Made by a program: the position numbers and the translations under genes
The notes under the pieces: model-generated
Told to the model about the DNA's origin: nothing
Database searches by the model: none
What the model saw: only the letters and a program-made list of their open reading frames with translations
Sequence record: OR525698.1
DNA: 64,000 bases
Strand: one strand, 5' to 3'
Origin: Escherichia phage vB-Eco-KMB43
Shown here: positions 5,776-23,488 of the stretch, in pieces
Layout: every line of letters starts with the position of its first letter
How positions within the stretch are numbered: the stretch's first letter is position 1

Positions 5776-5801
5776 GTTATTCTCCTGATTGGGGGTGTTT
5801 G

Positions 5802-5809: not shown

Positions 5810-5845
5810 TTTGTATACTGTATTTATTGAGTGAGGCTATTCGCT

Positions 5846-7330: not shown

Positions 7331-7380
7331 ACACGCGCTTTTGAGGATACAGCTTTACAATACCGATAAATTTGAGTATG
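7271..7380. repeat. perfect 55-bp tandem duplication (2 copies) at the uvsW 3' end
   Basis: 7271-7325 and 7326-7380 are identical: CTTAAACACGCGCTTTTGAGGATACAGCTTTACAATACCGATAAATTTGAGTATG. Confidence 0.95.
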
Positions 7381-7409
7381 TCACGAAAACCATCGAGATT
7401 TAATAAATA

Positions 7410-7431
7410 GGGGCTTTAATGCCCCTTTATT
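7410..7431 (+). terminator. candidate rho-independent terminator after uvsW
   Basis: GGGGC-TTTAAT-GCCCC hairpin followed by TTTATTCT, immediately after the native uvsW stop. Confidence 0.6.
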
Positions 7432-7446
7432 CTACGGAGATTAAAA

Positions 7447-7683
7447 ATGATTAGCTTTAAACGTTTTTTGGTTGAGGCCGCTATTGACGGTTTCATGCGT
7501 AAGATTTATTCTTGTAATACTATCGAGGGATTAAATGAACTTGAGGCATATTATGAGAAGCGCAAGAAAGAAACAGAATTGAAACCTGCTGATGATATTT
7601 CGATCCGTGATGCCATCGCTGGACGCCGTAAGCAACTGGAAGCGGACAACGAGCCAGAAGATGAGCCGGAAGAGGATTTTTAA
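7447..7683 (+). CDS. uvsW.1: UvsW.1-like small protein (78 aa)
   Basis: Intact ORF with GGAGA RBS directly downstream of uvsW, as in T4. Confidence 0.6.
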   Translation: MISFKRFLVEAAIDGFMRKIYSCNTIEGLNELEAYYEKRKKETELKPADDISIRDAIAGRRKQLEADNEPEDEPEEDF

Positions 7684-7694
7684 GATATAAAAAA

Positions 7695-7713
7695 GCCCCA
7701 TCATTGATGGGGC
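7695..7713 (-). terminator. candidate terminator between uvsW.1 and the uvsY cluster
   Basis: GCCCC...GGGGC hairpin flanked by A-runs on the plus strand (T-run on the minus strand). Confidence 0.45.
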
Positions 7714-7746
7714 AAAATAAACCAATTAAAATCGGTTATCAACAAA

Positions 7747-7923
7747 TTACATTAACAGCATTGTTTGCTCTACGAGTTGTTCTTGTTCTTCGCCGTTCGC
7801 ATCTTCACTAATCGAACGTTCTGTTACTAGCTGTAAGCAGTAGCCAGTGTGAACAACGCCGTTTTCTGTCTGGACGGATAACGCATCCTCGACAGGTTGT
7901 TTACAACAAATACAGATTTTCAT
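7747..7923 (-). CDS. small Cys-rich protein, UvsY.-2-like (58 aa)
   Basis: Manual translation MKICICCKQPVEDALSVQTENGVVHTGYCLQ...; below the ORF-track length cutoff; position as T4 uvsY.-2. Confidence 0.45.
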   Translation of the reverse strand: MKICICCKQPVEDALSVQTENGVVHTGYCLQLVTERSISEDANGEEQEQLVEQTMLLM

Positions 7924-7944
7924 AAAAATTCCTCCTGCATGTAT

Positions 7945-8352
7945 TTAGCGACCAGATTCCAGCATACGCAATTCTATAGCATTCTTGATCGCAAAGCCAC
8001 GAGATTTAACGATATCAAGTGCGCGACCAGCAAAATCCATTACCATCTGGTAATATGCAATTTTCGTATCAAGTGGTAAGATCTCGTCGTCTGCTGCCAT
8101 GACAACTTTCAATTCTGATTTCTCATATTCAGCACGACACCAGTCATCACTACGGTTAGTGTAAAAATCAAGACGATTTTTCATAGCCTTTTTCTTTTTA
8201 GCCTCAAGAGCAATCGTCTCTCTTTTCGCCTCGCTGTAAATCCTTAACCACTTTGAGTATACTACCGGATTATTCAGCGCCTCCCATTGCAACTTAGTCG
8301 CATCGATCTTCATGTCAGCTTCTAATTGTTCTTTCAAATCGTTTAGGTCCAT
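7945..8352 (-). CDS. uvsY: UvsY recombination mediator
   Basis: 135 aa; ...LQWEALNNPVVYSKWLRIY...KSRGFAIKNAIELRMLESG aligns with T4 UvsY. Confidence 0.85.
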   Translation of the reverse strand: MDLNDLKEQLEADMKIDATKLQWEALNNPVVYSKWLRIYSEAKRETIALEAKKKKAMKNRLDFYTNRSDDWCRAEYEKSELKVVMAADDEILPLDTKIAYYQMVMDFAGRALDIVKSRGFAIKNAIELRMLESGR

Positions 8353-8399
8353 AATATCCCCTTATTCACACTAAGACCTATATCATATCACACACAAAA

Positions 8400-8798
8400 T
8401 CACTTTGCAAGTCTTATGCGTAGTTGTTCAAGATCATCTGGGTTATCTATTACTGAAAAGTAGATTGATACTATGATTGAGTTATCGTCGTACTGCGGAG
8501 TTACTTCTACTGTCAGGTTTCGGACCCGTGGTTCATAGTTTCGGATCGCCTCATTGATGTTTTTTGATAAGGTGTCCACTGTCAGTGGGTTCATGTTCTC
8601 AAACAGTGATTTATTGAGATCGCATCCAAACAGTGGATCAAATGGACGAGATCCCTTGCGAGTAGTCACGATCAGTAGAATAGAATCCTTAACCGCTTTA
8701 ATCCCTATGTTCTTTTTAACGTCGTTATTCCACGATCTGGATATATTGAGATCCAAATCAGTATACATCTGATTAATAGTTGCCATGTTATACCTCAA
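8400..8798 (-). CDS. 25: baseplate wedge protein gp25
   Basis: 132 aa; TTRKGSRPFDPLFGCDL...FSVIDNPDDLEQLRIRL matches T4 gp25 almost motif for motif. Confidence 0.9.
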   Translation of the reverse strand: MRYNMATINQMYTDLDLNISRSWNNDVKKNIGIKAVKDSILLIVTTRKGSRPFDPLFGCDLNKSLFENMNPLTVDTLSKNINEAIRNYEPRVRNLTVEVTPQYDDNSIIVSIYFSVIDNPDDLEQLRIRLAK

Positions 8799-9424
8799 AG
8801 AATTTTAAGGAAACTGGATAGACCTGATAATGAATATACACCAGATTCCCCGCATTCGCACTTGATCGGTACTGCCAGCGTGATTTGATTTCTTGTTAGC
8901 TCGTCGATCACTTCTTCCACTTTATCCGTGGTAAGCATATCCAGCACACGGTCAAAGTCCTGTGCGTTCAGGTCGTCTATATTGAATTGCTGATCGCCGA
9001 TCACGATATATTCGATACATGCAATTACCATCTGCATAATATCAACATCTTCTGTAAATTTAGGTTGACGAAACTTGATTTTTACTTGTCCTAAGTCTAG
9101 AATATATGGTTCAACTTCTGGTATCTGTGTGCGTGAAACATCAAGAGAATATACTTTCTCTTTATTGCATACACCACACACCCAAGTAGCATCAATTTTC
9201 ATCTTATTGAGGCTGTGACACCATAAGAGAAGAAAAATATATTCTGCTTCGCATTTCTCTAGCTCTAATGCATTGATCCCCGTACATTCATGTATGATCT
9301 CTATAACAACCTCTGACAGCTTGCCAGTCTCTTTTGCTGCTACCAGTTTTTGAAATTCGCCGAAGGTGAAAGCACGGGCGTGTATCAACTTTTCGCCTAA
9401 TTGGATCTTGAAAAAGTATTGCAT
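8795..9424 (-). CDS. 26: baseplate hub protein gp26
   Basis: 209 aa ORF upstream of gene 25 and divergent from gene 51 as in T4; contains CGVCNKEK motif shared with the neighbouring gp51. Confidence 0.65.
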   Translation of the reverse strand: MQYFFKIQLGEKLIHARAFTFGEFQKLVAAKETGKLSEVVIEIIHECTGINALELEKCEAEYIFLLLWCHSLNKMKIDATWVCGVCNKEKVYSLDVSRTQIPEVEPYILDLGQVKIKFRQPKFTEDVDIMQMVIACIEYIVIGDQQFNIDDLNAQDFDRVLDMLTTDKVEEVIDELTRNQITLAVPIKCECGESGVYSLSGLSSFLKIL

Positions 9425-9466
9425 AATAAAACACCCTTTATAAACACATAGAATTATTTAGTATTT

Positions 9467-9474
9467 TATAAATA
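9467..9474 (+). promoter_or_regulatory. T4-type late promoter TATAAATA upstream of gene 51
   Basis: Exact TATAAATA 21 nt upstream of the gene 51 ATG. Confidence 0.6.
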
Positions 9475-9494
9475 CCCGAAAGGGGGATTATACC

Positions 9495-10265
9495 ATGAAT
9501 ATTATCCGAATAAAACTACCGGAAGGTGTGCAGAGATTTAAACCCTTCACGGTAAAAGATTATAGAGATTTCCTTCTGGTGTCAACTGAAATTAAGATGA
9601 ATCCAGAAGAAGAACAAACGATTCTGGATGAGCTATTAGAAGAAATATATCCAGAAGTAGATCCGGCATTTCGTGAATATATTTTCCTGAATGTCTTTAC
9701 TAGTTCAATTGGTAAAACTAAGATACCGCTTTGTTTTACTTGCCCGACTTGCAACAAAGAAAGAAAAATGTTGCTTAACTTACAGGTTGAAGCACTAAAA
9801 CCAATCGTTCTAGAGGCCGCAGGGCTTAAAATAACTTTCCGGTATGTTAAACCATCAACCGACTATGCAAAAACGTTTCTGGATGCGATAGAGCGTGTAT
9901 CTGATGGTATTAATGATTATCTATGGACTGAATTACCGGAAGAAGTTAGAGAACAGGTTATCGATTCAATCTCATTTGCTGAATTTGAAGAAGTTGTTAA
10001 GCAGATGCACACAATCAAGATCGAACAAAAGATATCTTGTTGTGAAAGTCATGACCTGAAATACATAGGTCTTCTTCCATTGTTCAAATTGTTGTTGAAT
10101 CCAGATGAGTTATTCATCTTTTATCGAATAAACCATCTATTGGCAAAATCAAATTATTCTATCAGTGATCTTATGGACATGTTACCCGTCGAGAGAAACA
10201 TTGCACTGACACTGGTCGAGAAAGACGTAAAAGAGGCAAACAATGCAAAGAACGGGGTTTCCTAA
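9495..10265 (+). CDS. 51: baseplate hub assembly protein gp51
   Basis: 256 aa ORF at the T4 gene 51 position; GGGGA RBS; CPTCNKERK motif paralogous to gp26. Confidence 0.65.
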   Translation: MNIIRIKLPEGVQRFKPFTVKDYRDFLLVSTEIKMNPEEEQTILDELLEEIYPEVDPAFREYIFLNVFTSSIGKTKIPLCFTCPTCNKERKMLLNLQVEALKPIVLEAAGLKITFRYVKPSTDYAKTFLDAIERVSDGINDYLWTELPEEVREQVIDSISFAEFEEVVKQMHTIKIEQKISCCESHDLKYIGLLPLFKLLLNPDELFIFYRINHLLAKSNYSISDLMDMLPVERNIALTLVEKDVKEANNAKNGVS

Positions 10266-11352
10266 TGTCTCAATAAAACTTTATCAGGATTATGAGGCAT
10301 TTCTAAATCATCGCTTTATAGAATTGGGTGCTACCTTTGTTACAATGACTCTGCGTGATTCGATTCGTGGGGTGAACGAAGGATTGTTGCAATTCTATGA
10401 TAATAAGGCGATGCATACAAAATTAAACGGGAGAGAGATCATTCAGATTTCTCTATCCACTGCTAATACAGATGAAGTGTTTAACCGAATCTATGGGATC
10501 TCTCATAGTAATGTAACAATTGACCAAAAATCAGACAACATTTTAACATTCCAGTTAAAGAGTTATCATGAAACCCTAAACCTTAAATTTTCTAGCTCAT
10601 TGACAAATAACGCTGTTAATAACGTAACTAGTATGATTGATGCCATCTATAAGGAAGTTCCTTTATGGAAACCTACTATAAAGGGTGATAACGTTGTTAT
10701 TCCTCGTTGTCCGTGGGTTAGTACCATAAATGACTATATGGATTTTGTTAGGGCATACGGGCAAAGCGTAGAAACCGAGTCTTTCGTGTATTGCTGGGAA
10801 GATTTTGATGGTATAACGATCGCTGGACACGATACAATATTAAAAAATGAGCCAATACCAGCTATAATCTGTGAGCCTAGACTCATGGGGCAATTTATTG
10901 ATATGTCGCCTAATCTGATGGTTTTTAATTTCGAGTGGCAGACTAAGAGCAATGCTAAAGTTAAAAATTCATTTAGCAATGTGACATACACAACTATTGA
11001 TTTTGTTACTAAGCAGTATAATAAAATTATTGTTGGTAATGGGGATAATATTGCACACTTTGCTCATGGCGGCGCTTATGGCGATTTAACTTATAAGAAT
11101 GCGTTTTTGGAAGGTTCTAAACTTGCCACAATAGAACAATATGATTCATATGCTACCGCCGTGTGTCACGGTAATTTTTCGTTGCGCCCTGGTATGGTTA
11201 TTCGATTCTTTGATGAGAAGCAACAAGCACGCAATGATTTTATTGTTGACGAAGTTGTGCATGAAATTAGCCGAGAGCAATCATTAACTCACCTGTATAT
11301 GATCGGTAACAGCGAAGAATTACAGGAAGTCAAATTTGAAGGTAAGATATAA
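10243..11352 (+). CDS. 27: baseplate hub protein gp27
   Basis: MQRTGFPNVSIKLYQDYEAFLNHRFIELGATFVTMTLRDS... aligns with T4 gp27 ([31 protein letters not shown]...). Confidence 0.9.
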   Translation: MQRTGFPNVSIKLYQDYEAFLNHRFIELGATFVTMTLRDSIRGVNEGLLQFYDNKAMHTKLNGREIIQISLSTANTDEVFNRIYGISHSNVTIDQKSDNILTFQLKSYHETLNLKFSSSLTNNAVNNVTSMIDAIYKEVPLWKPTIKGDNVVIPRCPWVSTINDYMDFVRAYGQSVETESFVYCWEDFDGITIAGHDTILKNEPIPAIICEPRLMGQFIDMSPNLMVFNFEWQTKSNAKVKNSFSNVTYTTIDFVTKQYNKIIVGNGDNIAHFAHGGAYGDLTYKNAFLEGSKLATIEQYDSYATAVCHGNFSLRPGMVIRFFDEKQQARNDFIVDEVVHEISREQSLTHLYMIGNSEELQEVKFEGKI

Positions 11353-13058
11353 TGACAGAAACTAAACCTATGTTAAAATTTGTTGTTCCTGTAAAAAAAT
11401 TAGAGATAAACGGGAAACATATCAAGATCCCAAAAATGGGGATTAAGCAACATCGATTATTAAAAGATGTTCGTAGCTGTGATGAAACATTAAAGATTCT
11501 TCTTGATTCAATCTGTCCTGGGTTAAACGCTGCCGAGTCTGAATTGGTTATGCTTAACCTTTGTGCGTATGAAGAATTGCAAAAACTCAATAATTTCTCT
11601 TCTCAGATGAATGAGAAATTACGTGGTTTTGGTGTTATGATGGAACGTAGATTTGGTGTTGTCAGTAAAATGGCTAGCGGTATTGGTGCGATTGAAGAAG
11701 CACTGAAAAAACCGGAACAACCGCAAACAATGCCATCACCTCAGCCAGTTTTGCCTACTGTACCGGAACAGCCTAATAATGACAACTATCAAGGTCTTCC
11801 AAAGAAAAAACCAGATGTTGAGGAACGGAAGAAAAAGAACGCCGCAGATAAGCGCAATGCGGATTCTATGGAAAATCTTCTTAAAGTTGTTCGTGGAGGA
11901 TTTAAAGAAACCATAGGTATCTCTAATAAGGTCTTAGGGATGTTATTTAAGATCACCTTGACCGCTATGGCAGAAGCCGCAAAATGGGGCGCTATTTTGA
12001 TGGGTATTGTTTTTGCCATTGATACCCTTATGATTCATTTCAGATATTGGAGTGATTTATTCGAAACAAAATTTGATGAATTTATGGATAAAGCCGGAGA
12101 ATGGGCTGGACCCATTAGTGATATTCTAACAACTATTCGTCAAGTTCGAGATTATTGGTCTAAAGGTGAATATGGAGAATTAATTAAATCTCTTGTTATG
12201 GGTATTGGTGATGCATTCTATAAAACCTTTATCCAACTTGATCGAATTATCACTACTGGTATTGCTAAAATTCTTCGCATGATCCCTGGTATGGGTGATT
12301 ATGCCGATAAGTTAGAATATGGTGCTTTAAAATCTGCTGTCGCTCAAGGTTATACGCCAAATGAAAGAGAACTCGAATTAATGGATAAGGTCGAGTCTGA
12401 ACACGAAGAGGACAAATACGGGGAGCGTACTGGTTGGACCGGAAAAGCCCGTGATATTGGTGAGGCTATCGGTGACTCCATTAAAGATAAAGTTAACGAG
12501 GGTCTTGTTAGTCTGGGTTGGAGAGATCAAAAGGATGTTGACGCAGAGAAGCGACAAGAAGAATTAAAGCGCGGAGAATATGAGTCTGTTTCTGCTGAAC
12601 AACGATCTGCTAGTCGTAAACTTAGAATTAAAAGTGAGGGCGCGATCAACAATATTAATGAAGTTATGGAGAATTTGAGCGGTGACTATGACAAAGAAAG
12701 AATGGGAGAGTTGAAAAAGGATATTGATGTTTACCGTGAGCAAGTTCAAGATCCTACATTAGTTGAAAGTGATCGTTCTCAGTTAGAGCGTCTTATTGAA
12801 AAATTTGATGAGATGTATGCTGATAAAACTAAGGGTGTTGTGCAAACACAGCCGGTTCCTGCAACTGAAACGGAAACAGCAAAACAAGCGGAACGTACTG
12901 AACAAATGCAGAAACAAGCTGCAATCCAGAAACAAACGACAAATCAGACCTCAAACGTAAATAATACACAAATTGTAACAAACAATAGAACTATTAAACA
13001 GGGTGCACCAACAACTAGAATTGATGCCCCCGGTACAATTAATATGGGGAACTTTTAA
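11352..13058 (+). CDS. 29: baseplate hub / tail-tube length determinant gp29-like (568 aa), occupying the T4 gene 28 and 29 positions
   Basis: Single ORF starting with ATGA overlap on the gene 27 stop; Pro/Gln-rich and charged low-complexity stretches typical of tape-measure-like proteins; no separate gene 28 ORF found. Confidence 0.6.
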   Translation: MTETKPMLKFVVPVKKLEINGKHIKIPKMGIKQHRLLKDVRSCDETLKILLDSICPGLNAAESELVMLNLCAYEELQKLNNFSSQMNEKLRGFGVMMERRFGVVSKMASGIGAIEEALKKPEQPQTMPSPQPVLPTVPEQPNNDNYQGLPKKKPDVEERKKKNAADKRNADSMENLLKVVRGGFKETIGISNKVLGMLFKITLTAMAEAAKWGAILMGIVFAIDTLMIHFRYWSDLFETKFDEFMDKAGEWAGPISDILTTIRQVRDYWSKGEYGELIKSLVMGIGDAFYKTFIQLDRIITTGIAKILRMIPGMGDYADKLEYGALKSAVAQGYTPNERELELMDKVESEHEEDKYGERTGWTGKARDIGEAIGDSIKDKVNEGLVSLGWRDQKDVDAEKRQEELKRGEYESVSAEQRSASRKLRIKSEGAINNINEVMENLSGDYDKERMGELKKDIDVYREQVQDPTLVESDRSQLERLIEKFDEMYADKTKGVVQTQPVPATETETAKQAERTEQMQKQAAIQKQTTNQTSNVNNTQIVTNNRTIKQGAPTTRIDAPGTINMGNF

Positions 13059-14116
13059 TGAAAATTAGTGTTATCAATGATGCCGTTGATAGCTTTAAAG
13101 CGGGGGTTAAAACCTCCGCTGGTTTTACCTCAAAAAATAAAGGGAAAACATTAACCGCTCAATTCCCCGCTGAACGTGCTAGCGGTAATGATGCTAGCGG
13201 TTATTATATCAACGACTTATATAATAATGGTCTGTTATTCACTGCATACGATTACACCTCTCGTACTACTGGATCGCTGCGTGATTTCAGGAAAAAGAAA
13301 AATGTTGCTAGCGGTTTTGGTGGTAGCGTTAATATCGCTGGTTTTGATTTAAATTTGGGTGGGAGAAATGCTGCATTTGACCGAGAGGCAATTGCTAATA
13401 TTCTTCTTCCTCGTAGTCAATCTGACGTTGACGCTGCCAGCCATAAGTTTAATGATGTTGGTGAATCTGTTATTTCTCGCGGCGGTGGTACTTTAGGCGG
13501 TGCTCTTTCTAATATGGCATCTACTGCCGTTTTTGGTGGTATCGAAAGTATTACTGGTGGATACCTTGCCGATCACGGTGAACAGATTTATAATACTGCG
13601 CGAAGCATGTATGCGGGTGCTGATGCACGAACTAAAAACTACGTATGGCATCTAACCCCACGTAGTATTGAAGACCTTCGCAATATTCTGATCATATACG
13701 AAACGTTTTTAGAATTGTCTTATGGTTCTAGTGGCATTTCCAGCACCGCAAAAGAATTAAAAGCGGAAGTTGATGCGTGGTATAAAAATACACTATTGAG
13801 AAAATCCACCCCAGAGGAAGCGAAGAGAAATGATACTCTGTTTGAAGGGATCACCGATTTTCTATCAAACGTAATTACTGTATCTAACCCGACAATATGG
13901 ATGATCTCTAACTTCGGCAAGCGTACATCGTTTGAAGGGCGTAGCGATGCATTTGGTCCCGCTCAGATCTCAAGTGTACGTCTGGACAAGTCGCCTGATG
14001 GTAAGTTTAATGGCCTTGCTATTTCTCCTAACTTGCCGAGTACCTTTGTTCTGGAAGTATCATTTAGAGAGATCTTGACACTTTCCCGTGGTACTATATT
14101 TGGGAGTGCGGCATAA
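13058..14116 (+). CDS. 48: baseplate tail-tube cap gp48
   Basis: 352 aa ORF (T4 gp48 is 364 aa) in syntenic position; start overlaps the upstream stop. Confidence 0.75.
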   Translation: MKISVINDAVDSFKAGVKTSAGFTSKNKGKTLTAQFPAERASGNDASGYYINDLYNNGLLFTAYDYTSRTTGSLRDFRKKKNVASGFGGSVNIAGFDLNLGGRNAAFDREAIANILLPRSQSDVDAASHKFNDVGESVISRGGGTLGGALSNMASTAVFGGIESITGGYLADHGEQIYNTARSMYAGADARTKNYVWHLTPRSIEDLRNILIIYETFLELSYGSSGISSTAKELKAEVDAWYKNTLLRKSTPEEAKRNDTLFEGITDFLSNVITVSNPTIWMISNFGKRTSFEGRSDAFGPAQISSVRLDKSPDGKFNGLAISPNLPSTFVLEVSFREILTLSRGTIFGSAA

Positions 14117-14568
14117 TGTTTGATTTAAATGACTTTAACGAACAAGCCGCTAACCTTGACTTTCAGCGATCGAACTTATTCAGCGTGGCATTTGCCACCA
14201 CTCCAAGTAATAAGACACAAGCGATCCTAGAAAGTATGGGTGGTGCGGTATATGATATTATACCAAATGCATTAAATGACTATTTCGGGATTACTCGTGG
14301 TGATTATACTGACGCATTAACAAATCTTGCTGTGCAGGGTGTTAGGCGTGCTGTTGATTCATCTGGTGTCAAAAAGTATCTTTTAGGTGCAATGTCATCC
14401 CGCGTAGTTCAATCTCTTCTGGGGCAATTTGATGTTGGTACATATGCGCTTGACTGGTTCAATCTGGCATATAAGACAAGCGGTCTTCTGGTGTATGCTG
14501 TTAAGGTTCCAGAAAACAGATTGAATTATGAAATGGACCGTAACCACAATGCGCCAAACATTCGATTA
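14116..14568 (+). CDS. 54: gp54 baseplate tail-tube initiator, N-terminal segment (gene interrupted)
   Basis: MFDLNDFNEQAANLDFQRSNLFSVAFATTPS...NRLNYEMDRNHNAPNIRL aligns with T4 gp54 residues 1 to about 150; homology ends at about 14568 and the frame then runs into junk and a stop at 14646. Confidence 0.8.
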
Positions 14569-14945
14569 ATGGTAAGTGTCTGGAAGAAAAAGATGGTCTT
14601 AAGCTGTCTGATGTGTATATTTGTACAGAGACTGAATTTACTTTAAATGGTAAAGTCTTTAAATTTAAAAATCCAATGTATACTTCTGACCCCATTATCG
14701 ATGACGCTGATTTCTTGAGTCATCATTATCACGATCCTAGTGTAGACTTCCATGATTTCCCAGCTTTTATTATGGATTGGGCTACAGGATTAAGAAAAAC
14801 TATTGCACTGGATACACCGGAAGGTACTATCTATGGTGGAATTAACATATTGGATCGCCTATCATGAATGACGCATTAACATCATTTCGCGGGATGCGCA
14901 AGGAAGCGGAAGAAAACCCGATTGATAAACTTAACAAATTAGATA
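14569..14945 (+). other. about 375-bp intervening sequence splitting gene 54 (candidate intron or insertion)
   Basis: gp54 homology stops after NIRL and resumes at NGRDFDPLVLSFRMDSS in a different frame; the insert contains in-frame stops; boundaries good to about 3 nt. Confidence 0.7.
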
Positions 14946-15425
14946 AACGGACGTGATTTCGATCCGCTTGTATTGAGCTTTAGAATGGACTCTAGCGCAT
15001 CAAACTATCGAGCAATGCAGGATTGGGTTAACTCAGTAGAAGACCCCGTTACAGGGCTTCGTGCGCTTCCTGTTGACGTTGAAGCAGATATTCAGGTTAA
15101 CTTACATAACCGAATGGGAGTTCCTCACACGATCATGATGTTTAATGGTTGTGTTCCTGTTGGTGTGAGTGCACCGGAATTAACCTATGAAAATAACAAC
15201 GAAATAACAACATTCGATGTTACTTTCGCATATCGTTCTATGCAAACTGGTGCTGTAGGAGAGCAAGCCGCGCGAGAATGGATTGAGGATAAGGCAATAA
15301 ACGCAATAACAAACACTTTCGGCAATAATTTACTTGATAGTGGGTTATCTGCTGCTGGTAATGCTTTATCGCGTCTAAATGGCGTTGGTGGGCGTGTGGT
15401 GAATACTGTCACTAACTGGTTCTGA
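14946..15425 (+). CDS. 54: gp54 baseplate tail-tube initiator, C-terminal segment
   Basis: GRDFDPLVLSFRMDSSASNYRAMQDWVNSVEDPVTGLRALPVDVEADIQVNLH... aligns with T4 gp54 ITGRELDPLVISFRMDSEACNYRAMQDWVNSVQDPVTGLRALP... to the C-terminus. Confidence 0.8.
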   Translation, partial: NGRDFDPLVLSFRMDSSASNYRAMQDWVNSVEDPVTGLRALPVDVEADIQVNLHNRMGVPHTIMMFNGCVPVGVSAPELTYENNNEITTFDVTFAYRSMQTGAVGEQAAREWIEDKAINAITNTFGNNLLDSGLSAAGNALSRLNGVGGRVVNTVTNWF

Positions 15426-15434
15426 TAATCGAAA

Positions 15435-15459
15435 GGCGGGGATTATCCCCGCCTTTTTA
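15435..15459 (+). terminator. rho-independent terminator after gene 54
   Basis: GGCGGGG-ATTAT-CCCCGCC hairpin followed by TTTTTAT. Confidence 0.7.
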
Positions 15460-15942
15460 TTTTGCTAAATCATTGCAATATTTTAGTGCCTTAGTTTGAA
15501 ATTCTGCGCTGTTAAGTTCTTCATAACGGTCATAATCACCGTTTAATGCTGCTTTTCTTGCTTCTTGCTCTATCTGCATGTCAGACATGATAATACAGCG
15601 ATCCCGTGCTTTCATCTTCTCAAGTTGTATAAACTCTTCTTTCTGTTTGCGCAATTCTTCTTGACGCTTCTTTTCTTCTCGTGCTTTCTCTTCCCGCGCT
15701 TCTTTGATTGCATCCTTGAACATCTGCGTTTGTGGTGCTAAACCAACTTTAACGCGACCCACGTCTCGACGTTCCATTTTAGAAATAAAGCATGATTCGA
15801 TCTGATCATCACTTGCATATGCTGCTTTACATTCACGAAGCAAGAAAACCGGATCTGATTTAGCATTCATCATAGCTTCCATGTTAGCACAACCAGTAAG
15901 CATGAATGCAGACGCAAGACCAATTAGTTTAATCATTTTCAT
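15457..15942 (-). CDS. predicted lipoprotein (161 aa)
   Basis: N-terminal signal peptide with lipobox LTGC; charged Lys/Glu-rich repeat region. Confidence 0.6.
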   Translation of the reverse strand: MKMIKLIGLASAFMLTGCANMEAMMNAKSDPVFLLRECKAAYASDDQIESCFISKMERRDVGRVKVGLAPQTQMFKDAIKEAREEKAREEKKRQEELRKQKEEFIQLEKMKARDRCIIMSDMQIEQEARKAALNGDYDRYEELNSAEFQTKALKYCNDLAK

Positions 15943-16763
15943 TTAGTCACCTCACCGAAAATTGTAAATTGTCTACGATTCTCATCGCCGAAAGATTCTA
16001 CTACGTCGTTTACCTTGACGCAAGTCCCGCGCGGTAAAATTACTTCACATTCGCAAGGATTCCATGCAATTGACCCAACAACAAAACCTTTATGATCTTT
16101 TACGTCAATTACCCACGATACATTACAAGAATGTTGCATCTTTCCGGTCATCGATTCATATCGATTCTCACAATAAAGGCTAGTGCTGTTTGATAGCCAT
16201 CCTCCAAAGATGATCGGTGTCATGCTGGTCGATACAAAGTTTTTAAAGGTAAACTCCTTATCTTCAATGATGCGCTCTATTGTCTGAATGTCAAGATGTT
16301 GACCGCGATAAAGAGTACCGTTTAACTTTTCGGTTTTATCCATGACACAATCCATCAAATCGACAATCTCTGATATCTCGTCGGTCATGTCTTCTTCCCC
16401 TAAGAGAGCACCATTTACCCATTCGTATTGTTCAGATACATAATCACAGATTGCATTATATTCTGCTGGGGTTATGTTGTTATGTTTGTAATGTTTGAAT
16501 ACATTATCTCCAAAGTCTTCGGAATGTACTTCATACATCACATTAATGATTTTCTTGACAAATCCATAATCTTGTGTCTCGCGCTCAAGGAAGCGGATAA
16601 CCTTCACATAATCATCAAAGTTAATCTGATCGCTGATCATCTCAGTGATCATGTAACCATTAATCCCCTCAATGTCATATGTTTCAATATAATTGTCCAT
16701 ACGTTCCATCATTGATTCGCGTGATTCTTCCGAAAGACGAAAATCCTGTAATTTCTTGAACAT
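15939..16763 (-). CDS. Alt-like ADP-ribosyltransferase paralogue (274 aa)
   Basis: C-terminal region YRGQ...FVSTSMTPIIFGG...ECEVILPRG parallels the Alt catalytic R-S-E region (YR..., FVSTSL, EILLPRG) seen in the adjacent alt gene. Confidence 0.6.
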   Translation of the reverse strand: MFKKLQDFRLSEESRESMMERMDNYIETYDIEGINGYMITEMISDQINFDDYVKVIRFLERETQDYGFVKKIINVMYEVHSEDFGDNVFKHYKHNNITPAEYNAICDYVSEQYEWVNGALLGEEDMTDEISEIVDLMDCVMDKTEKLNGTLYRGQHLDIQTIERIIEDKEFTFKNFVSTSMTPIIFGGWLSNSTSLYCENRYESMTGKMQHSCNVSWVIDVKDHKGFVVGSIAWNPCECEVILPRGTCVKVNDVVESFGDENRRQFTIFGEVTK

Positions 16764-16842
16764 TTTAAACCTCCCATATAACAGAAAACGGGGCTAGTAT
16801 AAAACTAGTCCCCGTTTGAGTCAACCATTATTTCTTAAAAAA

Positions 16843-18894
16843 TTACATTTTAAATTTATCTGGCATTGCGTCTACAGATACCAGATCAGCGATAAGCTGA
16901 CGTAGAGTTGCCTTATCTGCTTTCTTACGTTCGGTTTTAGCTTCGCTAATGAAGCTGGAGAAAGACAGGTCAGAAGCAGGTTTAATAACACCTTCACGGA
17001 TGAATGCATCACCGTCTGCGATCATCTCGCCAGATTCTTGTAATGCTGCCAGTTCATTTTTGTTCATAATATGTGCCTCAATGTAATAAGTTTCTTGTGA
17101 ATCCGTCGATGCCGTAGCACGAGTTACCGTATCAAAGGATAACACAACACCGCGAGGAAGTAAAATCTCGCATTCTTTGTAAGCAAATGCTTTGTTACCT
17201 ACTGGCAACACAGGGATGTTTTCCGCGCCAGCAATGGAGAAAGCAACATTAGCGCCACCTTCACCGCGAGAGCCAGCCATAGAATCAACACCAGCAACGG
17301 CACTAGCCACGTTTGCATTCCAGCCGCCAAAAATGTTAGGTGCAAGGGAAGTGCTCACATAGTTTTTAAAGTAAAACGCTTTTTGCTTACGTGCAGTTTC
17401 CCACATTTGAGTCCGGAAGTCCATACCACGATACAGAATAGTACCCGGATCAAGTTTAACGCCATAGTTGGAGAAGGCATTATCCAGTGCATCGCACATC
17501 TTGACCAATTCTTCTGGATCTGCGATGCCTTCAAACTCTTCCAGCTTACGATCAGTTAGGAAGTTGTTCATATTGATGTATGCTGCATCGGCATATTCGC
17601 TCAATACAAAACCTTCCGCGCCCGGCAGATCAAGATCAATATCTGCCATCATTTCACCCATGTTGCTAGCAATTGCTTCAAACATACCGGAAGCAACATT
17701 ACGTAGGGCATCGGTTTTAATCTGGGTGATATGACTACGCAGCATTTCAGCTTTTACATCTGCTGGCATAGACTGGTCTACTCGATCCATTGCCAGGGCG
17801 GTGATCTTGTTTTCGAATACTTCCTCGCTCATGATTTCTTTTAAGCGTTTGATTGATGCTGCGATAACTTCCGCAGACAACGGATCATATTGATCCTGAA
17901 CTTTTACCAGTTCGCTTACTGCGTATTTTGCATCTGCTTCGCTTTCAAAAATAGTACGCATGAAACCATAGCGAGTGATAATATCACTTGTCCAGTCATT
18001 CAGAGAACGGGCGGTTGAACGTTCTAATGCTTGACGATCAATCAGAGTATTAAACTGTTTCTTAGGTTCGGCTTCGGTGATATCTTCTTCCGGTTTAAGA
18101 TTAATTTTTTCTGGATGATTCACATAGTCGCTGTTATAGGTCGCTTGAGTTTTCAGCATTTCTTCTTTAGTCAAACGAGATTTAGCCGCTACGCGTTGTT
18201 CTGCTTCCGCGTTTCGTTCTTCTTCTGACACAAGACTAGCCGCATACGCCTCATCTTTAGTCAGAGATTCACCAGTAGCCTTAGATACCCAGCGATCACC
18301 TAAATCACTTTCTACTTTAGTGAACAAGGATTCATCAAGTTTAATCCCTTTAATCTTATCAATCGCCATCCCGCGACGCTTGACAACAACTAAAGCGATC
18401 TTTTTGCTGGTCATTACTTCCTGCTGGAATACTTCAAACTTCGGTGTACGACGCACCAAACGCTCTATAACGCGCTTAACCAGTTCGGTCTTACCTTTCA
18501 TGCGGGATACGTTAAAACGGAACATAACAGCGTCTAATTGCGCTTTACGGGCTGTTTCCATAACCACATCAAAAGCACTTGCCATAACTGCAATCGGGTT
18601 ATCTCCTAGACCATTTTTAAGCTGTACAATACGACCGCTTTTGTTCATTTCGCACAGTACAACATGTGCGGTCTTGTCACCCATACGAATGATTTTAGGT
18701 GTTTTGTTGGTGAAGTTACAAAGACGGACAATCACATCTTTATCGCGTGTCTGTACTGCAAAAAGCTGTTTAGGATTCTGCTTAGGCTTTAAGCACTGTA
18801 CCGGAGCAATACTGCCAAAGTTTTCTTCCTCTTCCGTCAACAGCCATTTCTCGAAAGATTCAATCATTAGATCGTCGATTTCTAAGTTAAACAT
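16843..18894 (-). CDS. alt: Alt ADP-ribosyltransferase (head-packaged)
   Basis: 683 aa (T4 Alt is 682 aa); LFTKVESDLGD and C-terminal FYFKNYVSTSLAPNIFGG...ECEILLPRG match T4 Alt. Confidence 0.85.
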   Translation of the reverse strand: MFNLEIDDLMIESFEKWLLTEEEENFGSIAPVQCLKPKQNPKQLFAVQTRDKDVIVRLCNFTNKTPKIIRMGDKTAHVVLCEMNKSGRIVQLKNGLGDNPIAVMASAFDVVMETARKAQLDAVMFRFNVSRMKGKTELVKRVIERLVRRTPKFEVFQQEVMTSKKIALVVVKRRGMAIDKIKGIKLDESLFTKVESDLGDRWVSKATGESLTKDEAYAASLVSEEERNAEAEQRVAAKSRLTKEEMLKTQATYNSDYVNHPEKINLKPEEDITEAEPKKQFNTLIDRQALERSTARSLNDWTSDIITRYGFMRTIFESEADAKYAVSELVKVQDQYDPLSAEVIAASIKRLKEIMSEEVFENKITALAMDRVDQSMPADVKAEMLRSHITQIKTDALRNVASGMFEAIASNMGEMMADIDLDLPGAEGFVLSEYADAAYINMNNFLTDRKLEEFEGIADPEELVKMCDALDNAFSNYGVKLDPGTILYRGMDFRTQMWETARKQKAFYFKNYVSTSLAPNIFGGWNANVASAVAGVDSMAGSRGEGGANVAFSIAGAENIPVLPVGNKAFAYKECEILLPRGVVLSFDTVTRATASTDSQETYYIEAHIMNKNELAALQESGEMIADGDAFIREGVIKPASDLSFSSFISEAKTERKKADKATLRQLIADLVSVDAMPDKFKM

Positions 18895-18940
18895 TTTATA
18901 TCCTCTAGTTGATAACCTATAAACCTATATTTATGAAAAA

Positions 18941-18955
18941 GGGGCTTAACGCCCC
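18941..18955 (-). terminator. candidate terminator between ORF 18962-19174 and alt
   Basis: GGGGC-TTAAC-GCCCC hairpin preceded on the plus strand by AAAAA. Confidence 0.55.
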
Positions 18956-18961
18956 CATTTA

Positions 18962-19174
18962 TTATAATGCACCATCGAGCAATTGCTCTAAGGTGTATCC
19001 TGAATAGTCTTTTTCAATCAGGATATATTTTCCTACTCGTTTAATACAACCGCGCATTTCAACGTATTCTGCGTAGTTGATGGTGCGAGTTGTTCCATCT
19101 TCCAGTAATGCAGTACCGATTTCGTTAATGCGGTCATAAGTTACGTCGGTAATGATGATTTCGATGTTAGCCAT
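18962..19174 (-). CDS. hypothetical protein (70 aa)
   Basis: ORF with AGGAG RBS downstream of a promoter cassette. Confidence 0.55.
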   Translation of the reverse strand: MANIEIIITDVTYDRINEIGTALLEDGTTRTINYAEYVEMRGCIKRVGKYILIEKDYSGYTLEQLLDGAL

Positions 19175-19204
19175 TTGATACTCCTTAGTAGTTCGTTTCG
19201 GTAT

Positions 19205-19245
19205 GGGTGTATTATGATATACACCCTCTGTTATGTCAACAACTT
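19205..19245 (-). promoter_or_regulatory. early promoter cassette (sigma70-like, PeSL-type)
   Basis: Reverse complement reads TTGACA, 17-nt spacer, CATAAT, then conserved leader ACACCCATACCGAAACG. Confidence 0.6.
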
Positions 19246-19425
19246 TTAGAACATTTTTGAAATCAATTCTGCTTTGATTTCGCAGAGAACATCTAAAGAT
19301 TTCTCGTCACCTGCTTTTGCTGCTTCTGCTTGCATTTTTGAAATGGCTTCAATGTCGGTGCAATTATAAGCCGCTTGAACTTTAGCGATTGCGATGATTG
19401 CCGATTCGATGGTTAAGTGTTTCAT
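19246..19425 (-). CDS. small hypothetical protein (59 aa)
   Basis: Manual translation MKHLTIESAIIAIAKVQAAYN...; preceded by promoter cassette and GGGGAATCAAAC RBS. Confidence 0.45.
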   Translation of the reverse strand: MKHLTIESAIIAIAKVQAAYNCTDIEAISKMQAEAAKAGDEKSLDVLCEIKAELISKMF

Positions 19426-19454
19426 GTTTGATTCCCCTTTCGTTTCGGTATGTG

Positions 19455-19490
19455 TGTATTATAGGGGATCACCGATCCCCCTGTCAACAA
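19455..19490 (-). promoter_or_regulatory. early promoter cassette with palindromic spacer
   Basis: Reverse complement TTGACA-GGGGGATCGGTGATCCCC-TATAAT; spacer is a perfect GGGGATC/GATCCCC palindrome. Confidence 0.65.
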
Positions 19491-19498
19491 CTTTTTAG

Positions 19499-20050
19499 TT
19501 ATTTTTTTAATTGCTCATCTTGCAATAGGGCAATCACATGCTGGCGATGTTCTTCCGATTGAGGCACACCGAAAAAGTTTGTTTTGTAGAAATACTCTAA
19601 TCGGTCTTCTCGTGTGCTCTCTTCCATCATGATCGCGGGTAGTCCGAGATTTCGGAAACGTCGCTTTTCTGCTGGCGTAAAATCACTGTAATACAACATA
19701 GAATCATCATTACCAGCAATGCTAAACTCATCCTTCATAAAGGAGAATATTGCGTTTAAACGCTGTTTACCGTCCACGATTTCGATCTCATAGCGAGAGC
19801 CATCATCAATCTTAGCCATTGCGATAGCACCGACCGGAAAATCATTAATCAGGTTTTCGATAAACATACGTTTGTTTTCGGTGTCCCATACCAAAGGACG
19901 CTGATAATCTGGGTTCATGTTGATATAGCCATCTTCTAACCATGCTTCGTAAACAGAGATGACAAAGTTTTTAGTATTGGTATAGTAACGGCGTTTAGGC
20001 GTTAAACGGTTCATGTTATAGTCTCCTGAATGGATCATCACGTAAATCAA
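19499..20050 (-). CDS. DUF262 (ParB-like nuclease domain) protein
   Basis: 183 aa; DYQRPLVW...FPVGAIAMAK...EIVDGKQRLNAI matches the DUF262 DGQQR signature region. Confidence 0.55.
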   Translation of the reverse strand: MIYVMIHSGDYNMNRLTPKRRYYTNTKNFVISVYEAWLEDGYINMNPDYQRPLVWDTENKRMFIENLINDFPVGAIAMAKIDDGSRYEIEIVDGKQRLNAIFSFMKDEFSIAGNDDSMLYYSDFTPAEKRRFRNLGLPAIMMEESTREDRLEYFYKTNFFGVPQSEEHRQHVIALLQDEQLKK

Positions 20051-20348
20051 TATCTTTTAAGAACTCATCCCATGAATGGCGGATATTGTTCTTAATTCTC
20101 CAGATAAGCGCAGGGATTGAACGCTCTCCCATCTGGAAGTATGGATCATATGATCCGTATGCCCAATATGCTACTACAATTCCACAATCAGCGCAATAGT
20201 ATTCTATTTCACTTGCTGGCGACCAAAGTCCATCAATATGATCGGTGATCTTGCTTTCGATGTTATGGCTATGACAATCAGGGCAACGGATGCAATGACC
20301 TTGTTTATCGTAATTTGACGTTAGCGAATACTTAAACAATCTCATCAT
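20016..20348 (-). CDS. small zinc-ribbon-like protein (110 aa)
   Basis: CxxC...CxxC arrangement (CIRCPDC, CADCG); start overlaps the upstream stop. Confidence 0.5.
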   Translation of the reverse strand: MMRLFKYSLTSNYDKQGHCIRCPDCHSHNIESKITDHIDGLWSPASEIEYYCADCGIVVAYWAYGSYDPYFQMGERSIPALIWRIKNNIRHSWDEFLKDIDLRDDPFRRL

Positions 20349-21061
20349 AGATCCTTATTTGCTTCAAATACTGCCTTTGCGAATCCTCGCGGGGTAAGTG
20401 ACCTGATAGTCTTTGTTTTCGTTCCTTTCCCGCCTAGCTTAGAATGCTGTTTACTGTACCCTTTATTAATCTGCAAAGGTTTCTTTTCTGGCATTATAAA
20501 GCCTTGTCCGGTCCATAAGCAAGTCTTTTTCGGGTACATATCACGGGCGGCGATATACTCAGGAAAAGTAGGATGTTTATCATCTTCCGGCAAATAACCG
20601 CCATATTCCCACGGATGGAACATATAATCAGGCTTACGCCACATGCTAGAGATAACGCTTACAGGATTCTCTATCATGTAGGGAACTCCTAGCCATTCAC
20701 CCAAATAAGCGGTTATTTTAGCTGCCCGTACATCATGAACTTGAATCAATGGTCCTTGCTCTCGTTTCTTTCGTTCAAAGTGTGCAGCGCCACTAACAGC
20801 TAAATTGGTGCACGGTGGGAATGCAAAGATAATATCCGGTTTCCCCCATTCAAGGTCCATTGCTCTTTCCAGCCAGTTCAAATCAATCCAGGTGTTTACA
20901 TAGGTAATGTTTGGATGTTCAAATCTGGTATTATACTTTTTGTATGTACCGTGGTCGGCGTCATCCGCATTAAAGCAGACTACCTTATGACCTGCTTTAG
21001 CCCATTCTAGCCCCATTATCCCCGATCCGTCAAAGTTACAGAATATTAATTTTTGTTTCAT
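20345..21061 (-). CDS. C5-cytosine methyltransferase-like protein (divergent, 238 aa)
   Basis: FCNFDGSG (motif I-like), IIFAFPPCTNLAVSG (motif IV-like Pro-Cys), MIENP (ENV-like); no clear motif VIII or X, so family assignment is tentative. Confidence 0.45.
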   Translation of the reverse strand: MKQKLIFCNFDGSGIMGLEWAKAGHKVVCFNADDADHGTYKKYNTRFEHPNITYVNTWIDLNWLERAMDLEWGKPDIIFAFPPCTNLAVSGAAHFERKKREQGPLIQVHDVRAAKITAYLGEWLGVPYMIENPVSVISSMWRKPDYMFHPWEYGGYLPEDDKHPTFPEYIAARDMYPKKTCLWTGQGFIMPEKKPLQINKGYSKQHSKLGGKGTKTKTIRSLTPRGFAKAVFEANKDL

Positions 21062-21303
21062 ATACGCCCCTTTAATCCAACACAGATTTTAGAAGGTTCT
21101 TTGCCGTGCCACATTAAGTAAAGTCCATTAATGCGGCCTTGTTTTGTATATGATTCTTTTCTGATCTTCTTATAGTGTCGTGCTTCCTCAGCCGATTGTT
21201 TAGAATACCAATCATAAAGGAAGAGGCACAAAGGCCAACCATTAGCGGCCTTAATGCAGTTATTAAGAAATTCCTTATTGCGTTTAATTAATTTTCTTTT
21301 CAC
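21058..21303 (-). CDS. hypothetical protein (81 aa)
   Basis: Intact ORF, start overlapping the upstream stop. Confidence 0.5.
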   Translation of the reverse strand: MKRKLIKRNKEFLNNCIKAANGWPLCLFLYDWYSKQSAEEARHYKKIRKESYTKQGRINGLYLMWHGKEPSKICVGLKGRI

Positions 21304-21551
21304 GCTGCCCCCATTGGTTTGATAGTAACAGAATCTAAAAGACCTTTGTTAGCCAGTTCGCGGCAAGTTTTCAGATCCGCAACTTCCCAGCCAGCCGCAA
21401 TCAGGTTATCGATGAGGCTGTTAGCAACTTCTTCGCTCATGAAAGAGCACTGTTTGCCGATGGTGTAGCGTACACGCTGTAATTTCAGTTTACGGAAGCC
21501 TTTAACGTTCAGGTCTTTAGCGATTTTCTTTGCGGTTTCGATGTTAGCCAT
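21300..21551 (-). CDS. hypothetical protein (83 aa)
   Basis: Intact ORF with GGAGAATCAAAC RBS downstream of a promoter cassette. Confidence 0.55.
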   Translation of the reverse strand: MANIETAKKIAKDLNVKGFRKLKLQRVRYTIGKQCSFMSEEVANSLIDNLIAAGWEVADLKTCRELANKGLLDSVTIKPMGAA

Positions 21552-21587
21552 TGTTTGATTCTCCTAAGTGGTATCTAGTCTTGATGG

Positions 21588-21622
21588 TTGTATTGTAGGG
21601 GAGTTATCCTCCCCTGTCAACA
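21588..21622 (-). promoter_or_regulatory. early promoter cassette with palindromic spacer
   Basis: Reverse complement TTGACA-GGGGAGGATAACTCCCC-TACAAT. Confidence 0.6.
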
Positions 21623-21634
21623 CTTTTTATAAAA

Positions 21635-21802
21635 TTATTTGTTAATTTCCGGTGCGTTGCTAGGATAGTAACCTTCTTTAACTCCGAGGTATTTCGCAAC
21701 CATCCCTACAATCTTCTGTGCTACTACAATGTCAAATTTCAGATAATCTTCGCCGTGGGTTTCAATGATATATGCTTCACATGCTGCTTTAGTCTCGAAC
21801 AT
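21635..21802 (-). CDS. small hypothetical protein, paralogue A (55 aa)
   Basis: MFETKAACEAYIIETHGEDYLKFDIVVAQKIVGMVAKYLGVKEGYYPSNAPEINK; near-identical second copy at 25256-25423. Confidence 0.55.
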   Translation of the reverse strand: MFETKAACEAYIIETHGEDYLKFDIVVAQKIVGMVAKYLGVKEGYYPSNAPEINK

Positions 21803-21832
21803 TTTGATTCTCCTATTTCGTTTCGGTATGTG

Positions 21833-21868
21833 TGTATTATAGGGGATCTCCCGATCCCCGTCAACAAC
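21833..21868 (-). promoter_or_regulatory. early promoter cassette with palindromic spacer
   Basis: Reverse complement TTGACG-GGGATCGGGAGATCCCC-TATAAT then conserved leader and GGAGAATCAAAATG. Confidence 0.65.
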
Positions 21869-21880
21869 TTTTTTTTAAAA

Positions 21881-22162
21881 TTATTCGTGATTAGTTTCGA
21901 TGTTGTGCATTTTGCACCAGTTCAGCCAATCACCCAGATCCTGATAGTTAATGCTTTTATCTGCTGCCATCGTTTTTGTCTTGATACCCATATGTGCGTT
22001 ATGAGTAAGCATTTTTACAGTGAACTCAATTTTATCACCTTTAGCTTTAACATCAACCAGTTTGGTCCACTGGCTACCAGCGCCGCGAATGTTCATACCA
22101 ACGATGTTTCCGATGTATGCTTCTTTGTTTTTCAGGATTTCGGTTGCTTTGATGAATTTCAT
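21881..22162 (-). CDS. hypothetical protein (93 aa)
   Basis: Intact ORF with GGAGAATCAAAAATG initiation context. Confidence 0.55.
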   Translation of the reverse strand: MKFIKATEILKNKEAYIGNIVGMNIRGAGSQWTKLVDVKAKGDKIEFTVKMLTHNAHMGIKTKTMAADKSINYQDLGDWLNWCKMHNIETNHE

Positions 22163-22192
22163 TTTTGATTCTCCAGTTCGTTTCGGTATGTG

Positions 22193-22226
22193 TGTATTAT
22201 GCTATTTTCTTACTTTGGTGTCAACA
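22193..22226 (-). promoter_or_regulatory. early promoter cassette
   Basis: Reverse complement TTGACA-N17-CATAAT with conserved leader. Confidence 0.6.
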
Positions 22227-22233
22227 ACTTTTT

Positions 22234-22503
22234 TTAGATATTTTCAGAAATAAATTTTAAAACTTGACGTAAATGTTTCTCATCTTTGATAGTCGCCGGA
22301 AGTTCTTCTTTTACTTCCTGTGCAAGATAGATATTTCCGTTCCAAGTGAAAGATCCGTCTTCGTTTACGCGATAGCTGAACATCCACTCGCAATCATTTT
22401 CGATTTCATATACACACAGAAGAGTGTAATCTTCAAAGCTATTGATTTCAAGGTCGAAGCCGTGACGTTTTGCAAAGTTGGTAGTGGTTTTAGTCAGTGC
22501 CAT
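22234..22503 (-). CDS. hypothetical protein (89 aa)
   Basis: Intact ORF with GGAGAATCAAACAATG initiation context. Confidence 0.55.
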   Translation of the reverse strand: MALTKTTTNFAKRHGFDLEINSFEDYTLLCVYEIENDCEWMFSYRVNEDGSFTWNGNIYLAQEVKEELPATIKDEKHLRQVLKFISENI

Positions 22504-22540
22504 TGTTTGATTCTCCTAAGTGGTATCTCGTCTTGATGGG

Positions 22541-22575
22541 TGTATTATGCTATAGGCGTGATCTGGTGTCAATGC
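22541..22575 (-). promoter_or_regulatory. early promoter cassette
   Basis: Reverse complement TTGACA-N17-CATAAT. Confidence 0.55.
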
Positions 22576-22820
22576 TTTTTTTAATTTTATGCAATAAAAA
22601 GACGACACTAAGGTCGGCACATTTTAAAAATTCTTGCCATATATGCAAGCCTCATAATCTAGAGGATGACCGCCAATCCTACCCGGCTTAATATTCCAAC
22701 CGCATCGATATTTGCTGACCATGCTAACAGTTTCGGTTCTTAGAGCATTTTCTTTGCAAATCATACCCCATAAATTCTTTTCTATAAGGACAGTCCGCTT
22801 TGCAAGTTGGCGGTTCTACG

Positions 22821-23012
22821 TCATTTAGCGGGTCGGAAGCAGTTGGCTTTATTATCAATTCTTTGTTTGCAATAATCATAAGCACATCCCATTGAAGACA
22901 ATTTAACATCTTCGCAATAAGTGTTGAATCCGTCAAACACGGTCACTTCGTATTTGACTCCATCAGCGATAGCTTTTACTTTATACCATCCATGCTTGTA
23001 TAAAATCTTCAT
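22821..23012 (-). CDS. small Cys-rich hypothetical protein (63 aa)
   Basis: ORF with promoter cassette and RBS upstream; overlapped in another frame by ORF 22724-22936, which may hold a second small gene from an internal ATG. Confidence 0.5.
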   Translation of the reverse strand: MKILYKHGWYKVKAIADGVKYEVTVFDGFNTYCEDVKLSSMGCAYDYCKQRIDNKANCFRPAK

Positions 23013-23041
23013 CTTTATTTCCTCAATCTCGTTTCGATGGG

Positions 23042-23077
23042 TGTATTATGCTATAGGCTAGACCAGGTTGTCAACAA
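23042..23077 (-). promoter_or_regulatory. early promoter cassette
   Basis: Reverse complement TTGACA-N18-CATAAT. Confidence 0.55.
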
Positions 23078-23104
23078 CTTTTTTAATTTTTTGGAAATAA
23101 AAAA

Positions 23105-23122
23105 GCCGACGCTAAGGTCGGC
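23105..23122 (-). terminator. candidate terminator downstream of ORF 23131-23439
   Basis: GCCGAC-GCTAAG-GTCGGC hairpin flanked by A-runs on the plus strand. Confidence 0.6.
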
Positions 23123-23130
23123 TAATAAAA

Positions 23131-23439: not shown

Positions 23440-23488
23440 AGTGATATCCTCATTCAGATAGATTAAAAGGGGCTTAACGCCCCGTATA

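Follow-up and report, generated by a model that had tools for sequence, protein, structure and literature searches.

Baseplate gene 54 in the sequence record of Escherichia phage vB-Eco-KMB43 is interrupted by a displaced piece of genes 28 and 29, most likely through an assembly or record error

Introduction

Several kinds of interrupted gene have been described in the T4-type phages. Group I introns interrupt td, nrdB and nrdD (sunY) in these phages, and in some T4-like phages genes are known to be split, for example by homing-endonuclease genes, so that an essential gene lies in two pieces around inserted DNA. In T4 gene 60, a coding gap of 50 nt with matching take-off and landing codons, and with a stop codon shortly past its beginning, is dealt with by translational bypass. 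T4-type phages also recombine heavily and tolerate duplications. In T4, assembly of the baseplate and tail depends on genes 28, 29 and 54, each of them essential, and gene 32 is essential as well. A further source of interrupted genes is the building of the record itself; a 55-bp end overlap produced by SPAdes, corresponding to a final k of 55, has been reported and trimmed in the assembly of a T4-like phage (PMC8483715).

Here we analyse the interruption of gene 54 in the window, the whole 64-kb stretch of phage DNA that was compared with its relatives. The first-pass annotation, made from the letters alone, had described the gene as split by an insert of about 375 bp and had offered four readings: a new intron location, a different intervening element, a two-piece gp54 or an insertion artefact. 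The split is real in the sequence, and as in the homing-endonuclease-split genes of T4-like phages an essential gene stands in two pieces around inserted DNA. The insert itself is displaced gene 28/29 DNA and not an intron, and the last of the four readings comes close to what the evidence shows: the interruption is most likely an assembly or record error and not a real biological feature such as an intron.

Results

Relatives of the window and its state outside gene 54

The region around the gene 54 interruption was 98-99% identical to 58 phage-collection records, all of them RB49/JSE-like T4-type coliphages (Krischvirus), and we assign the window, as read from its sequence, to an RB49/JSE-like T4-type coliphage of the genus Krischvirus. 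According to the annotation of JSE and RB49, the gene order here is 51, 27, 28, 29, 48 and 54, followed by two small genes and alt on the opposite strand. A whole-window comparison revealed that the rest of the window is collinear with JSE, with zero inversions. When 90 JSE ORFs were searched against the window with tblastn, only uvsW, 28, 29, 54 and 32 were structurally broken, and five other ORFs deviated merely by a few residues at one end. Base-level quality elsewhere is high, with no scattered frameshifts across the 90 ORFs.

Other parts of the window show features of their own. Families of intergenic repeats of about 60-80 nt lie between small early genes at 19190-27056, 35188-35790 and 62594-63998, and JSE has them too. 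The repeat unit consists of a hairpin, then GTCAACAACTTTTT, then a minus-strand ribosome-binding region, and the repeats are probably the known early promoter/terminator cassette repeats of RB49-like phages. The nrdB/nrdA interval at 37713-39171 is unlike JSE, where a homing endonuclease is annotated, and a 43-nt repeat stands on both sides of the difference (38273-38315 and 39171-39213, 95% identical); natural variation in homing-endonuclease content is the probable source. The stretch at 55029-58559, within the distal long tail fibre gene region, has no similarity, or weak similarity, to JSE (74% over 57368-57668), a divergence that probably represents natural host-range variation.

Gene 54 as written

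The features on which the analysis rests are as follows.

11352-11567, plus strand: gene 28 (encoding gp28, the baseplate hub distal subunit), 5' portion with codons 1-72, in its native place; 100% identical to JSE gp28 1-72, PF11110 profile 1-49.
11567/11568, no strand: deletion junction where 542 nt are missing (JSE L003 3529-4070; gp28 codon 73 onward and gp29 codons 1-81); from blastn against JSE and ten relatives.
11568-13058, plus strand: gene 29 (tail length determinator), codon 82 to stop, fused in frame to gp28(1-72); from the ORF list, PF25671 and collinearity with JSE from 4070 onward.
14116-14565, plus strand: gene 54 (baseplate tail tube initiator), codons 1-150; 98.7% identical to JSE gp54 residues 1-151.
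14566-14948, plus strand: displaced 383-nt block, equal to JSE L003 3529-3911, replacing ATTACC; from its match to the gene 28/29 junction.
14568-14867, plus strand, inside the block: gp28 codons 74-172 and stop; 100% amino acid identity to JSE gp28 74-172, PF11110 profile 60-151.
14864-14948, plus strand, inside the block: gp29 codons 1-28 (MNDALTSFRGMRKEAEENPIDKLNKLDK); tblastn of JSE gp29 1-28 gives 100% at 14864-14947.
14949-15425, plus strand: gene 54 codons 153-310 and stop; from a PF06841 match, the ORF list and the JSE comparison.

The gene 54 frame that begins at 14116 runs into foreign DNA and stops at 14646, giving a 176-aa product, while the C-terminal half of gp54 lies in a different frame from the N-terminal half and ends at 15425. 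In all 11 related sequences read at the site, gene 54 has AAC ATT CGA ATT ACC (or ACG) GGA CGT, encoding N-I-R-I-T-G-R, and the native hexamer is ATTACC (Ile-Thr), or ATTACG in two relatives. The window has AAC ATT CGA, then a block reading TTAATGG...GATAAAC, then GGA CGT, so that a 383-nt block stands in place of six native bases and the net gain is 377 nt. By base-by-base reading the block extends from 14566 to 14948, with its right end ambiguous by 1 nt, and the true ends of gene 54 are ...NIR to 14565 and GRDFDPL... from 14949. Comparison with related phages, a check put forward with the original observation, found gene 54 uninterrupted in 58 of 58 related records, to which the window query aligns as two pieces skipping about 377 nt, and 10 further contigs likewise have a contiguous gene 54. 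A contiguous gene 54 in related phages is the outcome that the first-pass annotation itself had named as refuting its observation.

Cutting out 377 nt yields 310 codons, which is the gp54 length in the relatives, and leaves the two block ends, TTA and AAC (Leu-Asn), where the relatives have ATT ACC. The boundaries first proposed, 14568 and 14946, do give 310 codons when joined; the true limits are 14565 and 14949, with the 383-nt block replacing six bases, and the 'L' and 'N' at the join that had been assigned to gp54 are both encoded by the block ends. The apparent repair of the frame is a coincidence of arithmetic (383 - 6 = 377) and is no evidence of splicing. A parent gene 54 that naturally read TTAAAC (Leu-Asn), which would have provided microhomology, was also considered and is ruled out by the ATTACC or ATTACG of 11 of 11 relatives.

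Directly after the gene 54 stop, at 15426-15465, there is a GC-rich hairpin with a T run (AAAGGCGGGGATTATCCCCGCCTTTTTATTTT) that resembles a bidirectional intrinsic terminator. The sole Rfam matches over 14000-15500, weak sRNA matches of terminator type at 15420-15490, are all due to this gene 54 terminator hairpin.

The block is the gene 28/29 junction

BLAST of the insert, another of the checks proposed at the outset, matched the gene 28/29 junction of the relatives and not their gene 54. With 386 nt aligned at an identity of 99-99.7% (E = 0) in 54 Krischvirus records, and weaker agreement in four more, the match lies well outside what chance would give. In the relatives the block has its home at one place per record, about 2.9 kb upstream of gene 54 and spanning the gene 28/29 boundary, and in the window it occurs once.

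Within the block, JSE gp28 residues 74-172 are encoded at 14568-14864, and the ORF at 14613-14867 is the gene 28 frame, listed from an internal GTG. The two short ORFs with an ATGA overlap that had been reported in the insert were confirmed (14613-14867 and 14864-14956), and in the RB49 and JSE annotation this ATGA is the native gene 28/29 stop/start overlap. Two other motifs have an equally plain origin. The GTAAGT that had been taken for a boundary consists of ordinary gp28 codons (N-G-K-C) and is there in every related gene 28 read, and the supposed P7-like stretch, GTACAGAGACTGAAT, aligns with JSE gp28 as the ordinary codons C-T-E-T-E-F. The block evolves as gp28/gp29 coding DNA. It carries the 3' 100 codons of gene 28, followed by the overlap with gene 29 and by the 28 codons with which that gene opens. 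This identity, the source of the block and its breakpoints were read directly and are essentially certain.

A matching deletion at the gene 28/29 locus

At the native locus, the ORF at 11352-13058 is a chimera of 568 aa that joins gp28 residues 1-72 to gp29 residues 82-577. By Pfam, this ORF combines PF25671 (T4_Tape_measure) with the N-terminal part of PF11110 (Phage_hub_GP28), whose C-terminal part falls in the block. A gene caller would label the ORF as a slightly short tape-measure protein, and the loss of gene 28 could escape notice.

Alignment of 8000-19000 with JSE L003 gave four collinear pieces: 8042-11568 with 1-3528, 11568-14568 with 4070-7071, 14563-14948 with 3526-3911 and 14948-19000 with 7073-11124. 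The deletion at 11567/11568 and the insertion in gene 54 share their left breakpoint at L003 3528/3529 and are therefore read as one linked event. Identical breakpoints were obtained against 11 relatives, namely JSE and ten others from ENA, NCBI and Logan contigs; these ten were recovered through exact look-ups of the gp48 and Alt proteins, and all have the normal arrangement. In every relative examined the three genes are intact, with gp28 of 172 aa, gp29 of 577 aa (in one contig called at 567 aa) and gp54 of 310 aa. The lost 159 nt (gp29 codons 29-81) are absent throughout the window, and no second copy of the block was found within its 64 kb. Thus, the block is near-identical to the locus of its own lineage and that locus is deleted with a common breakpoint, which is the pattern of a relocated segment, whether by cut-and-paste rearrangement or by misassembly.

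Compared with all known relatives, the order a-b-c-d-e-f has become a-d-b-f here, where b is the 383-nt block, c the lost 159 nt, d the sequence running from codon 82 of gene 29 to codon 150 of gene 54, and e the hexamer ATTACC. The gene 28/29 piece is gone from its home about 3 kb upstream and stands in gene 54 in place of six bases, and no splicing takes part.

The arrangement is unique among the collections searched

The left insertion junction and the deletion junction had no exact match in IMG/VR, nor had the left insertion junction any in JGI metagenome contigs, while the native gene 54 junction, our positive control, does occur in IMG/VR. At the protein level, neither the gp28/gp29 chimera nor the truncated gp54 had an exact match in a 153-billion-gene index. 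In no other genome matched does the block lie away from the 28/29 locus. The arrangement is unique among the collections searched.

Two 55-nt tandem duplications in uvsW and gene 32

The remaining two broken genes carry tandem duplications of the same length. At the 3' end of uvsW, a 55-nt tandem duplication occupies 7271-7380 (7271-7325 equals 7326-7380), with copies that are 100% identical, and the ORF ends early at 7330 as the frame is shifted. Gene 32, which encodes the ssDNA-binding protein on the minus strand, has in its 5' part a 55-nt tandem duplication at 44999-45108 that contains one mismatch and splits gp32 into a 53-aa ORF at 45166-45005 and a 322-aa ORF at 45105-44137. Since 55 is not a multiple of 3, both duplications shift the frame. 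Both are missing from the relatives, whose matches, among those listed, are exactly 55 nt shorter.

These duplications look like untrimmed assembler overlaps with k = 55, and our inference is that the record was put together from pieces whose overlaps had been left untrimmed. They show that the record has construction errors, yet they do not by themselves explain the three rearrangement junctions.

Record error or real rearrangement

Taken at face value, the sequence specifies a gp28N::gp29(delta 1-81) chimera together with a truncated gp54 and some orphan fragments, and three tail/baseplate genes are broken. Because genes 28, 29 and 54 are essential and are all broken here, a phage with exactly this sequence should be non-viable. 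In our judgement it is quite probable that the cause is an error in record construction (misassembly, mis-stitching or editing) and that the sequence is not that of a viable phage genome. We judge this likeliest on three grounds: the expected lethality of the arrangement, the undecayed state of its fragments and the two frame-breaking 55-nt duplications in the window; the confinement of the arrangement to one record lends it indirect support as well. Counting against an artefact, none of the three rearrangement junctions has a 55-nt overlap, and all three fall between the two putative contig joins, and the gp28N::gp29 fusion is in frame, although this has a chance of one in three. The additional loss of 159 nt and 6 nt counts against a simple cut-and-paste. 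We also considered wrong contig order with k = 55 overlaps as the full story and rejected it, as it fits the two duplications but not the three overlap-free junctions.

It is rather unlikely that the rearrangement is physically real and belongs to a defective or mutant genome, in which illegitimate recombination, such as a tandem duplication with two subsequent deletions, led to a-d-b-f. Such a genome would be kept up through complementation by wild-type genomes at high multiplicity or by a second, intact copy of genes 28-54 outside the window. The high base-level quality, with the 90 ORFs free of scattered frameshifts, speaks for a real event, the common breakpoint of deletion and insertion is what a single linked event predicts, and the heavy recombination and tolerance of duplications among T4-type phages count in the same direction. 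However, a real event needs three novel junctions and two losses, with microhomology at the junctions that is essentially nil (0-1 nt). It would also disrupt genes 28, 29 and 54, none of which has another copy anywhere in the 64 kb; no other genome or contig shows the arrangement, and the uvsW and gene 32 duplications of 55 nt point to a problem in the building of the record.

That the rearranged molecule is both real and propagated, whether as a Krischvirus that tolerates or is complemented for the chimera and the splits or as a defective genome accompanied by a helper in the lysate, we consider very improbable. If true, the propagated molecule would be an unusual natural case of transposase-free segment transposition in a T4-type phage.

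Split proteins, introns and mobile elements

There is scarcely any likelihood that a viable phage uses a two-piece gp54, a two-piece gp28 and a gp29 with a replaced N-terminus, even though the gp28N::gp29 fusion is in frame and split genes in some T4-like phages count in favor of this reading. For the C-terminal half of gp54 there is no start at the boundary, where an in-frame TAG stands at 14940-14942; its first listed start is TTG at 14973, and no Shine-Dalgarno-like sequence was seen in the bases preceding that TTG. The two-piece gp54 of the first-pass annotation is not supported as a functional arrangement. The C-terminal fragment of gp28 has just the internal GTG at 14613, gp29 residues 29-81 are wholly missing, and the arrangement occurs in no other genome.

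A self-splicing group I or II intron at a new location, which would restore gp54 on removal, has a negligible probability, and for practical purposes the intron reading is already refuted. In its favor, removal of 377 nt restores the 310-codon frame, and T4-type phages do carry group I introns in other genes. However, the block codes for parts of gp28 and gp29 and matches the native locus in the relatives at 99-100% identity, and the restored frame would read Leu-Asn against the Ile-Thr of all relatives read, with six native bases gone; moreover, splicing would leave genes 28 and 29 unrepaired. The Rfam scan and RNA folding suggested for this locus did not bring out an intron either. With cmscan over 14000-15500 on both strands (E <= 10, permissive filters), we obtained 19 weak matches, none of them to an intron family. 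The minimum free energy of the block was -79 kcal/mol, compared with a mean of -79.5 kcal/mol for dinucleotide shuffles (z = 0.08), showing no excess structure. Group I boundaries are not found at any of the four placements that restore the frame: with exon 1 ending at 14566-14569, the last intron base (14943-14946) is A, T, A or A and never G, and the exon ends in U in only two of the four. The claim of a new group I site thus fails in model match, structure and boundaries alike. Group II features (GUGYG, AY, domain V and a typical length above 600 nt) are lacking too, with no Rfam match and a block of 383 nt that reads UUAAUGG...AUAAAC. Nothing on an intron in RB49 gene 54 was found in the literature.

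A mobile element inserted in gene 54 (a miniature transposon, a homing-endonuclease cassette or something intein-like) has practically no probability: a discrete block in one genome, lacking from the same site in the relatives, would suit it, but the block has no terminal inverted repeats, end direct repeats or target-site duplication and six target bases are deleted instead, it is single-copy in every genome and otherwise always at the 28/29 locus, its ORFs are C-terminal gp28 (74-172) and N-terminal gp29 (1-28) fragments with no endonuclease or transposase domain, and it is out of frame with gene 54 (377-nt net shift) and therefore no intein. The 'different intervening element' of the earlier reading is thus displaced gp28/gp29 coding DNA.

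Discussion

An error in record construction is the explanation that we favor for the interrupted gene 54. Its practical value is that of a quality flag: the record has at least three structural errors, which break uvsW, 28, 29, 54 and 32, and this concerns its use for annotation, comparative genomics and phage-therapy safety assessment. The locus also teaches caution, as a misplaced block of a genome's own coding DNA can mimic a frame-restoring 'intervening sequence'. A self-splicing intron at this place would have had no precedent among T4-type baseplate genes, but the intron reading fails.

Compared with the known systems, the locus shares with the T4-type group I introns (td, nrdB, nrdD/sunY) a block of a few hundred bases that is absent from the gene of the relatives and whose removal restores the frame length, but it differs from them in having no catalytic core, no excess structure and no U/G boundaries, in its protein-coding homology and in the six missing exon bases. 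Unlike the homing-endonuclease-split genes, it has no endonuclease in the block and no translation starts for the pieces, and the block is a relocated part of two essential genes that are destroyed thereby. With the translational bypass of T4 gene 60 it has in common a coding gap in a T4-type gene and a stop codon shortly past the beginning of that gap. The gap here, however, measures 377 nt against 50 nt, lacks matching take-off and landing codons and consists of displaced coding DNA.

The closest counterpart is a misassembly or record artefact. The locus departs from it in having no 55-nt overlap at the three junctions and in the extra loss of 159 nt and 6 nt. It agrees with such an artefact in that a segment is misplaced and its place of origin is correspondingly deleted, the fragments are undecayed, essential genes are broken and one record alone is affected, and in that two perfect or near-perfect 55-nt tandem duplications co-occur, 55 bp being the length of the SPAdes end overlap (PMC8483715).
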